DNA from: Thiotrichales bacterium
GTDB lineage: Bacteria; Pseudomonadota; Gammaproteobacteria; Francisellales; CACEW01
DNA length: 64,000 nucleotides
Reading direction: 5' to 3'
NCBI GenBank assembly: GCA_947478525.1
Contig: CANJVU010000004.1
Span: 22,458 to 86,457 of the forward strand
Part shown: positions 10,356 to 10,548 of the stretch, in pieces
How the letters are laid out: every line of letters begins with the position of its first letter
Position numbering within the stretch: position 1 is the first letter of the stretch
Position numbers and translations under genes: made by a program
The notes under the pieces: generated by a model
Databases searched by the model: none
Seen by the model: the letters and a program-made list of their open reading frames with translations, nothing else
What the model was told of the DNA's origin: nothing

Positions 10356-10548
10356 GTGGCTGAGTGTGTTACGGTGTTACGCTTGTGTTACAGCCACTGC
10401 AATTACTCGCTTCCAGGATAGAATCTTCAAAATGTATTACAGTTGTAACACAGCGTCAACACCAATAAACTCATCGCTTGTGCCACAGCAAGAGAATAAA
10501 AATTAATCCGATTTTTATCATTTTTTTCTTGTGTTACGTTTGTGTTAC
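10356..10548. repeat. GTGTTAC iteron/operator array
   Basis: GTGTTAC at 10366, 10374, 10385, 10531 and 10542. Variant GTATTAC at 10434 faces an inverted GTAACAC at 10445 (7-4-7 palindrome). The first three copies are enclosed by stem 10356-62 / 10391-97. Confidence 0.6.

Follow-up and report, generated by a model that had tools for sequence, protein, structure and literature searches.

A GTGTTAC heptamer array and its inverted, word-switched paralog as a likely protein-binding module in a satellite-like island of a Thiotrichales bacterium

The heptamer array and its paralog

The 64,000-nt stretch of a Thiotrichales bacterium contig analysed here (the window) contains a 15-kb genomic island, in which a cluster of the heptamer GTGTTAC is located in a stretch free of genes, about 100 bp beyond the stop (10646) of orf192, the last gene of the hcp operon. 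The cluster is most likely a docking array for a DNA-binding protein and, judged from the sequence, would be the cis-acting half of a module of about 390 bp (module A) in the cargo part of the island. A single diverged paralog (module B) was found in the same island, inverted, 7.6 kb away at 18395-18010; it occupies the second of the two long stretches without genes, the one between the genes for a POT-family transporter and a TIR-domain protein. Both modules carry heptamers at eight corresponding positions, of the form GT[G/A]WYAC in module A but GCAWTGC in module B. The parts of the two modules are listed below.

Module A
10171-10552, minus strand (that of the candidate transcript and small open reading frame (ORF)): whole module, with the conserved segment at 10171-10355 and the heptamer array at 10356-10552
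10171-10192, far end of the module: best-conserved block TGCTCAATCGCC[A/G]C[A/G]TGGCTCA, identical to 18395-18374 at 20 of 22 positions
10356-10397: 7-bp inverted repeat GTGGCTG (10356-62)/CAGCCAC (10391-97) around the triple, not complementary in module B
10366-10391, plus strand: proximal triple, GTGTTAC at 10366, 10374 and 10385, spacings of 8 and 11 bp
10434-10462: central pair GTATTAC (10434)-AGTT-GTAACAC (10445) with the degenerate GTCAACAC (10455-62)
10480-10486, plus strand: degenerate single GTGCCAC; CGCTTGTGCCACAGC is 87% identical to CGCTTGTGTTACAGC
10531-10548, plus strand: distal pair GTGTTAC-GTTT-GTGTTAC

Module B
18010-18395, plus strand: whole module, inverted paralog of module A, with GCAWTGC at 18028, 18079, 18113, 18124, 18172, 18183 and 18192
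18198-92, 18189-83 and 18178-72: triple of GCATTGC, spacings of 9 and 11 bp, homologous to the triple of A
18130-18113: central pair GCAATGC-GTTT-GCAATGC, homologous to the central pair of A
18085-18079: intact single GCAATGC, aligned with the degenerate GTGCCAC of A
18034-18017: distal pair GCAATGC-GTTT-GTATTGC, homologous to the distal pair of A
18017: hybrid heptamer GTATTGC (GCAATAC when read on the plus strand)

The homology was detected by blastn as 70% identity over 181 nt (E=5e-11) between 10171-10345 and the inverted 18395-18219, and a global MAFFT alignment of the two modules stayed colinear through both arrays. In both, the order is a triple, a 7-4-7 pair, a single and a second 7-4-7 pair. 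In module coordinates the heptamers start at 207, 215, 226, 275, 286, 321, 372 and 383 in module A and at 209, 218, 229, 277, 288, 322, 373 and 384 in module B; the degenerate A copy at 321 was placed from the repeat comparison and the alignment. The eight positions agree within 2 bp between the modules.

At these positions module A holds GTGTTAC five times and GTATTAC, GTAACAC and GTGCCAC once each, and module B holds GCATTGC three times, GCAATGC four times and GTATTGC once. Across the aligned heptamers, positions 1, 5 and 7 were unchanged, whereas positions 2, 3 and 6 were switched uniformly (T2>C, G3>A, A6>G). Identity outside the heptamers was 54% (75/139) in the array and 69% (126/183) in the flanking segment 10171-10355. 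The 7-4-7 pairs are located at 10374/10385, 10434/10445 and 10531/10542 in A and at 18189/18178, 18130/18119 and 18034/18023 in B, and in all six the spacer reads NNTT, with TT at positions 3-4.

The same layout, filled with a different seven-base word at every site, suggests that the repeats and their spacing are under selection. A uniform change of word with a kept geometry points to protein-binding sites that would have co-evolved with two specificities, an interpretation well supported by the comparison of the two copies. Both words are near-palindromes (GTAWTAC-like and GCAWTGC), and the central A/T, that is, the 'orientation', differs between homologous sites (e.g., GTGTTAC at 10531 versus GCAATGC); at near-palindromic sites such a difference is tolerable for reading by a protein but not for pairing in RNA.

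Statistics of the GTGTTAC cluster

GTGTTAC is present on the plus strand at 10366, 10374, 10385, 10531 and 10542, its reverse complement GTAACAC at 10445 and the variant GTATTAC at 10434. These positions, and those of the stem around the first three copies, had been given in an earlier note made from the letters of the window and were all correct when checked against the sequence. The copies at 10385, 10531 and 10542 read TTGTGTTAC, and a spacing of 11 bp separates 10531/10542, 10374/10385 and 10434/10445. Where the note had counted seven copies of a 7-mer in 190 bp, the cluster is real but the exact count is six, plus one variant with one mismatch. Two more degenerate copies were recognised, GTGCCAC at 10480-86 and GTCAACAC at 10455-62. 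The repeat unit is the 7-4-7 pair, exemplified by the 19-mer GTGTTACG[C/T]TTGTGTTACA at 10374 and 10531, with GTATTAC-AGTT-GTAACAC at 10434 lying between its two copies.

The exact word was found eight times on the two strands of the window, versus 5.1 expected, and six of these eight copies fell within 183 bp (10366-10548). In a scan of all 7-mers for their densest 200-bp cluster, the GTGTTAC cluster, with six copies, ranked second in the window and the first place was taken by GCAATGC/GCATTGC near 18028-18198, in module B. The maxima in 40 first-order Markov shuffles of the window were only 3-5, which upheld the claim of a cluster far above chance. With eight copies against 5.1 expected there is therefore no general oligomer bias, which the note had named as an outcome that would refute its reading, and versions with one mismatch were not enriched elsewhere in the window.

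The further claim of the note, that the cluster is a binding array for a DNA-binding protein, is supported by the paralog, since eight kept positions combined with a uniformly changed word are stronger evidence for such an array than copy number alone. Its details fared less well. The 10434/10445 pair had been read as a 7-4-7 palindrome of the kind bound by a dimeric helix-turn-helix protein, but the paralog has at this place the direct pair GCAATGC-GTTT-GCAATGC of individually near-palindromic heptamers, and the palindrome reading is not supported. The 7-bp stem enclosing the triple is present in module A but has no counterpart in the paralog and is probably incidental. Similarly, GTTACACGGCA, presented as related to the array, does occur at 9370 and 9791, but its leading GTG is missing and its number is near chance (two copies versus an estimated expectation of roughly 0.4 in 1.8 kb), so that the proposed kinship was not retained.

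Candidate promoters and a putative product

Both modules contain a promoter-like site on the strand leading from the array into the conserved segment, and this segment holds a small ORF in each copy.

10431-10459, minus strand: promoter-like TTGACG-17-TACATT over the central pair, found by consensus scan (9/12)
10402-10430, minus strand: promoter-like TTGAAG-17-AGTAAT between the central pair and the triple, read from the sequence
18134-18162, plus strand: promoter-like TTTAAA-17-AATAAT of module B, reported by the scan
10050-10077, plus strand: strong promoter-like TTGACA-16-(TG)TATGAT (11/12 matches), directed rightward into module A
10235-10348, minus strand: candidate small ORF of 37 codons from TTG or 35 from the ATG at 10342 (MKKRHISLATTQFYLCTKSAAGVLKFWLLLLLFVL)
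18222-18338, plus strand: candidate small ORF of module B, 38 aa

In the alignment, the module B hexamers homologous to TTGACG-17-TACATT are poor. The site TTGAAG-17-AGTAAT is positionally equivalent to TTTAAA-17-AATAAT of module B, with the same 2-nt offset as the heptamers; it falls below the threshold of the scan and has a poor -10 hexamer, with G at its position 2. With either of the two candidate starts as reference, the core promoter is covered or directly preceded by the central pair, the triple follows closely downstream, and the distal pair is about 100-150 bp upstream. This placement looks operator-like and would leave room for looping.

The small ORF is the only one common to the two modules (39% identity over 33 aa), has a hydrophobic C-terminus, and the context of its ATG, AAAATGAAAAT, is perfectly conserved in both. 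The candidate product would be a hydrophobic peptide of 35-38 codons or a small RNA. The earlier note had offered an operator for a leftward transcript as one of two roles for the array. This remains plausible and is the best available reading of the sequence: promoter-like sites are present in both copies and the downstream segment is 69% identical, but the best hexamers of the two copies lie 30 bp apart.

In the model that we favour, the heptamers would be recognised by a sequence-specific DNA-binding protein, with a different specificity for each of the two modules, belonging to paralogous proteins or to one protein family. With their 11-bp period, the pairs would allow two subunits to bind the same face of the helix, in the manner of OmpR/PhoB-type winged-helix dimers, and the three stations over about 155 bp may build a cooperative, possibly looped complex. 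The promoter under its control would lie within the array and direct transcription leftward, on the minus strand of A and the plus strand of B, into the conserved segment of about 180 nt with the hydrophobic ORF of 35-38 codons or a small RNA.

We give this model as a whole, with heptamers as binding sites of two specificities controlling a leftward promoter, about an even chance, and several observations weigh against it. The word switch was deduced from two sequences, which makes covariation statistics weak, and no homolog of the module was found in any collection searched. The best hexamers of modules A and B are offset by 30 bp, and promoter-like matches turn up often, with about 4 expected in 1.8 kb, or about 1 per 460 bp. 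The mismatches in the small ORF lack 3-periodicity and show a nonsynonymous excess, with no sign of purifying selection. Near-palindromic heptamers are atypical of the asymmetric half-sites of OmpR/PhoB. As for the binder, no paralogous pair of DNA-binding proteins was found in the island, no response regulator was detected among the 30 window ORFs put through Pfam, and the small cargo proteins are orphans without recognisable DNA-binding domains.

Comparison with known regulatory sites

The closest likeness was found with the OmpR/PhoB boxes (Pho box, PhoP direct repeats, OmpR F1-F4/C1-C3), which share the 7-bp repeats, the T-rich 4-bp spacer and the 11-bp period, and whose clusters likewise have several stations around a promoter, one of them distal. 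PhoP sites of M. tuberculosis have a direct 7-4-7 geometry (PMC4832192), and the Salmonella OmpR motif from chromatin immunoprecipitation, TGTWACAW, occurs in 2-3 copies per region (PMC3586657). The A-type sites hold TGTTACA twice and TGTAACA once, a likeness to the OmpR motif that may serve as a lead only. In contrast to these systems, a response regulator is missing from the island and from the window ORFs put through Pfam, the heptamers are near-palindromic and their orientation is not kept between the paralogs (although the outer A pairs are direct), and the B-type word GCAWTGC bears no resemblance to the OmpR and Pho boxes.

Operators of ribbon-helix-helix proteins (MetJ-Arc-omega) are arrays of 7-8-bp near-palindromic sub-sites, direct or inverted, that are bound cooperatively. 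Omega and MetJ sub-sites are contiguous and recur every 7-8 bp, in contrast to the 11-bp period and the stations 48-50 bp apart seen here, and no ribbon-helix-helix gene was recognised near the array. A literature search for GTGTTAC as a named site returned nothing specific. The module is an orphan member of a familiar class and its novelty is modest.

Search for relatives

In an nhmmer search, copies A and B were the only instances of the module in the window and in all loci compared. The product of the neighbouring orf192 retrieved only itself among 5.8 billion proteins, and all contigs carrying orf192 were 100% identical across the array. Related DUF3987 islands were without the module and the GTGTTAC array at one genome-contig locus, at eight viral-contig loci and on the contigs of three homologs. 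The region 9000-10650 gave no blastn match to phages and plasmids. An exact-pattern scan for the best-conserved block of the module returned 0 matches in viral contigs and 75 in metagenome contigs, all of the latter being seed-only chance matches. Six relatives of orf429 were found, with POT downstream and no arrays.

Scans of viral contigs for 7-4-7 pairs gave 117 matches of the A type and at least 120 of the B type, several with 4-9 phased copies. These matches were selected by the search pattern itself and are uninformative on homology; none was homologous to the module, and no homologs of island proteins accompanied them beyond background AlpA and integrase. The phased runs of either word in phages, often at replication genes, show only that such words are usable as protein sites.

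Replication and other DNA transactions

The other role offered by the earlier note was a set of replication-initiator iterons, and this could not be maintained. The array is not beside an initiator gene, and the DUF3987 primase-helicase-like gene of the island has its own repeats, CTGCC-N4-CTGCC...GGCAG-N4-GGCAG, directly 3' of it (window 8520-8930), written CTGCCAAAACTGCC...GGCAGTAATGGCAG directly 3' of its stop. This set is duplicated as a 103-nt direct repeat (8526-8628/8814-8916, 89%). It also follows DUF3987 in five related loci, sometimes outside any ORF, at the positions given below.

L005, 5030-5130: CTGCC/GGCAG set
L123, 12198-12300: CTGCC/GGCAG set
L124, about 5750-5800: CTGCC/GGCAG set
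L125, 12230-12325: CTGCC/GGCAG set
L129, about 4310-4350: CTGCC/GGCAG set

In a second DUF3987 subgroup (L127, L128, L130 and L131), this place is taken by an analogous CCGAC/GTCGG set. The CTGCC/GGCAG set is a likely origin or crr-like site of the DUF3987 primase-helicase. The GTGTTAC array, for which the note had looked to conservation in homologous islands, had no counterpart in 13 related DUF3987 loci, and neither had the module. Neither module contains a DnaA-box or IHF consensus, and an AT-rich stretch is present in A only: a 36-nt segment of 14% GC (10495-10530) forms the distal half of a stretch of about 80 bp flanked by repeat sets, while the homologous stretch of B has about 42% GC. 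Iteron origins (the origin of Staphylococcus aureus pathogenicity islands (SaPI), P4 ori/crr, lambda-type ori) resemble the arrays in having short repeats in at least two sets, a word specificity that varies between related elements and, for module A, an AT-rich stretch between the sets; they differ in the points just given. The array binder is not the replication system of the island.

It is nevertheless conceivable, if doubtful, that the array is a site for a DNA transaction, i.e., a replication origin, a transfer origin or a pac-like packaging signal, whose protein is supplied in trans, for instance by a helper phage or conjugative element, with the two modules serving two alternative helpers. 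The island is satellite-like, with its P4-type integrase, AlpA and DUF3987, and the repeat sets around the stretch of about 80 bp resemble SaPI-type origins, which reportedly have such a layout (Ubeda et al.). In phage contigs, runs of GTGTTAC or GCATTGC phased at 11 bp are located beside or inside replication-protein genes, and Rep/ori specificity pairs also evolve by a matched switch of word. However, the phage arrays, which are contiguous runs rather than spaced pairs, have no homology to the module, genes for an initiator, relaxase or terminase are missing next to the array, and the features that told against an iteron origin (the separate conserved site of DUF3987, the missing AT-rich stretch in B, the lack of DnaA and IHF consensus and the related islands without the module) apply here as well.

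A bolder variant, which we hold to be very unlikely, would make the two inverted modules orthogonal 'address labels' that bracket a 7.5-kb cargo (hcp operon, orf429 and POT). Each module would then be read by a different trans-acting protein, e.g., of two helper phages or conjugative elements, and the pair would act as dual helper-sensing switches, as dual origin or packaging signals of an undescribed kind, or as the ends of a new mobile cassette.

Two further candidates were rejected. Arm-type sites of the integrase, or sites of a recombination directionality factor, are expected no more than about 200 bp from the core of an attachment (att) site, and the array is located 4.8 and 10 kb from the att repeats (5596 and 20625). 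A different repeat, TTGCCCCCA, lies beside both att repeats, at 5673-5693 and 20480-20499 (cluster 20320-20520), and its copies are candidate arm-type sites of the P4-type integrase. Ends of a Tn7/Mu-type transposon were discarded as well: the inverted modules carry different words and no transposase domain was found among the enclosed genes.

RNA-level and remnant readings

The repeats might instead act in RNA, the central copies pairing with the flanking ones as in P4 CI (seqA/B/C), P1 C4 immunity or the leader of a type I toxin-antitoxin system, and the word switch would then be compensatory covariation; this appears improbable. RNA immunity is used by P4-type elements, and the island has a P4-type integrase and AlpA. 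As in the seqA-seqB-seqC scheme, the central element is complementary to two flanking repeats (75% over 20 nt to both flanking pairs). Folding of the single strand 10340-10560 gave z = -3.2, and the plus-strand promoter-like site at 10050-10077 would give an RNA antisense to the candidate small hydrophobic ORF.

These signals did not extend to the paralog. The complementarity that includes the spacer and third heptamer exists in module A only, homologous heptamers differ in sense or antisense between the paralogs and thus allow no common pairing scheme, and the two transcripts together give a weak consensus fold (-22 kcal/mol over 246 columns). The complementarity of the heptamers themselves is automatic because the words are near-palindromic. 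No C4 or other Rfam family was matched at gathering score or E<=5, and the array is in the cargo and not, as in P4 CI and P1 C4, in the leader of a replication operon. For a type I toxin-antitoxin system, the shared hydrophobic ORF has mismatches without codon periodicity and the antisense promoter-like site is present in A only, the module B scan having revealed no counterpart; whether the 10050-10077 site is part of the module is uncertain.

The modules could also be decaying and without present function, left over from an older regulatory region that had been duplicated or from a small mobile element, with partner genes that would have disappeared during assembly of the hcp operon and the inverted POT, but we see little chance of this. 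A convergent orphan gene ends directly next to module A and leaves nothing sizeable on that side, one A heptamer is degenerate (GTGCCAC), the island has other duplications as well as a POT inverted relative to orf429, and no homologs were found elsewhere. Against such decay, 7-8 heptamers per module are intact, with kept positions and one word per module, after a divergence of about 30-45%, which is not expected without selection on binding.

Island setting and gene content

The 3' end of a tRNA-Met gene (20625-20701, minus strand) is the insertion point of the island, which lies between tRNA-Met and rimP, upstream of rimP-nusA-infB, and is bordered by the direct repeat TGGTTGCGGGGGCA at 5596 and 20625 (the att repeats). 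Its gene content was as follows.

6502-6699: AlpA
6713-8488, plus strand: DUF3987 primase-helicase-like gene, together with two alpA-like starts and orf108 on the same strand
8995-10645: stretch of 1.65 kb without credible genes
10646-11224, minus strand: orf192, last gene of the hcp operon, which also comprises orf80, orf158, hcp (12674-13159), a gene for a LysM protein and orf124
14632-15921, plus strand: orf429
16071-17513, minus strand: POT-family transporter
18515-19219, minus strand: TIR-domain protein
19223-20500, minus strand: P4-type integrase

The genes nearest to the array are the orphan orf192, which is convergent, and DUF3987, 1.9 kb off. Among the cargo proteins only Hcp, LysM, TIR, POT and integrase domains were recognised with Pfam, PHROGs, PADLOC and NCBIfam, and the orphan cargo ORFs had no family match and no DNA-binding domain in the same collections or, for orf429 and orf158, in PDB sequence searches. 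The orf80 product is acidic and hydrophobic, and orf80 and orf158 are orphans without alignments.

Duplications and rearrangements were noticed around these genes. The alpA leader with the first 15 codons is duplicated (6063-6171/6438-6546, 109 nt, 87%); an unrelated 57-aa ORF continues from the first copy, and both copies hold the inverted repeat CAGATAG-N11-CTATCTG. In two related islands, palindromic repeats specific to each were located just upstream of alpA, ATGCCGCAA/TTGCGGCAT in L125 (9226-9340) and CATGACA/TGTCATG in L124 (3281-3368). The orf429 and POT genes are adjacent and co-directional in relatives (L210 1185-3895; L214 876-3653; 49-53% aa identity), but convergent in the window (14632-17513); the POT segment has therefore been inverted and the cargo rearranged around module B.

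Module B and a perfect 16-bp hairpin (17750-17791) are bracketed by a 21-nt inverted repeat (18/21) at 17732-17752/18509-18529, and about 0.5 such repeats were estimated by chance per window. The bracketed segment could be invertible or mobile, or the repeat could be a chance match. The strongest hairpin left of module A (9962-9992) shares its arm core, CGTCACTA/TAGTGACG, with the hairpin of module B. Around module A, neither terminal inverted repeats nor homology of the flanks were found outside the module.

Folding of the hairpin-rich gene-free stretch at 9100-10100 gave z-scores of -3 to -5 for each of the two strands, and Rfam had no match to it. A search of 9000-10640 for remnants of the genes that follow DUF3987 in relatives gave no match, orf108 being the only homologous one. 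Two independent Logan assemblies, L002 and L004, end at the same base, window 9793, inside the 9778-9817 hairpin, and another, L003, ends at 10442, the centre of the central pair of the array; coverage, strain junctions and real ends are candidate causes of the shared break points. In the host chromosome, the window contains an ankyrin-repeat protein gene and a tmRNA gene (41566-42375 and 51086-51501), the latter with an unusually long tag peptide as read by ARAGORN.

Significance of the paired arrays

Binding arrays of short repeats are common in mobile elements, but an internal control showing which bases matter is rare. Here one island holds two copies of one architecture, with a word switched at three positions (GTGTTAC versus GCATTGC) and the spacing kept, so that arrays A and B may serve as reciprocal controls and give a specificity-swap handle on the binder. 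Three repeat systems can be told apart in the 15-kb island: candidate arm-type sites of the integrase, the origin-like repeats linked to DUF3987 and the heptamer arrays. If the binder is an ordinary host regulator, the pair would be a neat but unremarkable example of a cis-regulatory region that was duplicated and diverged; if a helper encodes it instead, the modules would illustrate how two partners are sensed or exploited by a small island.

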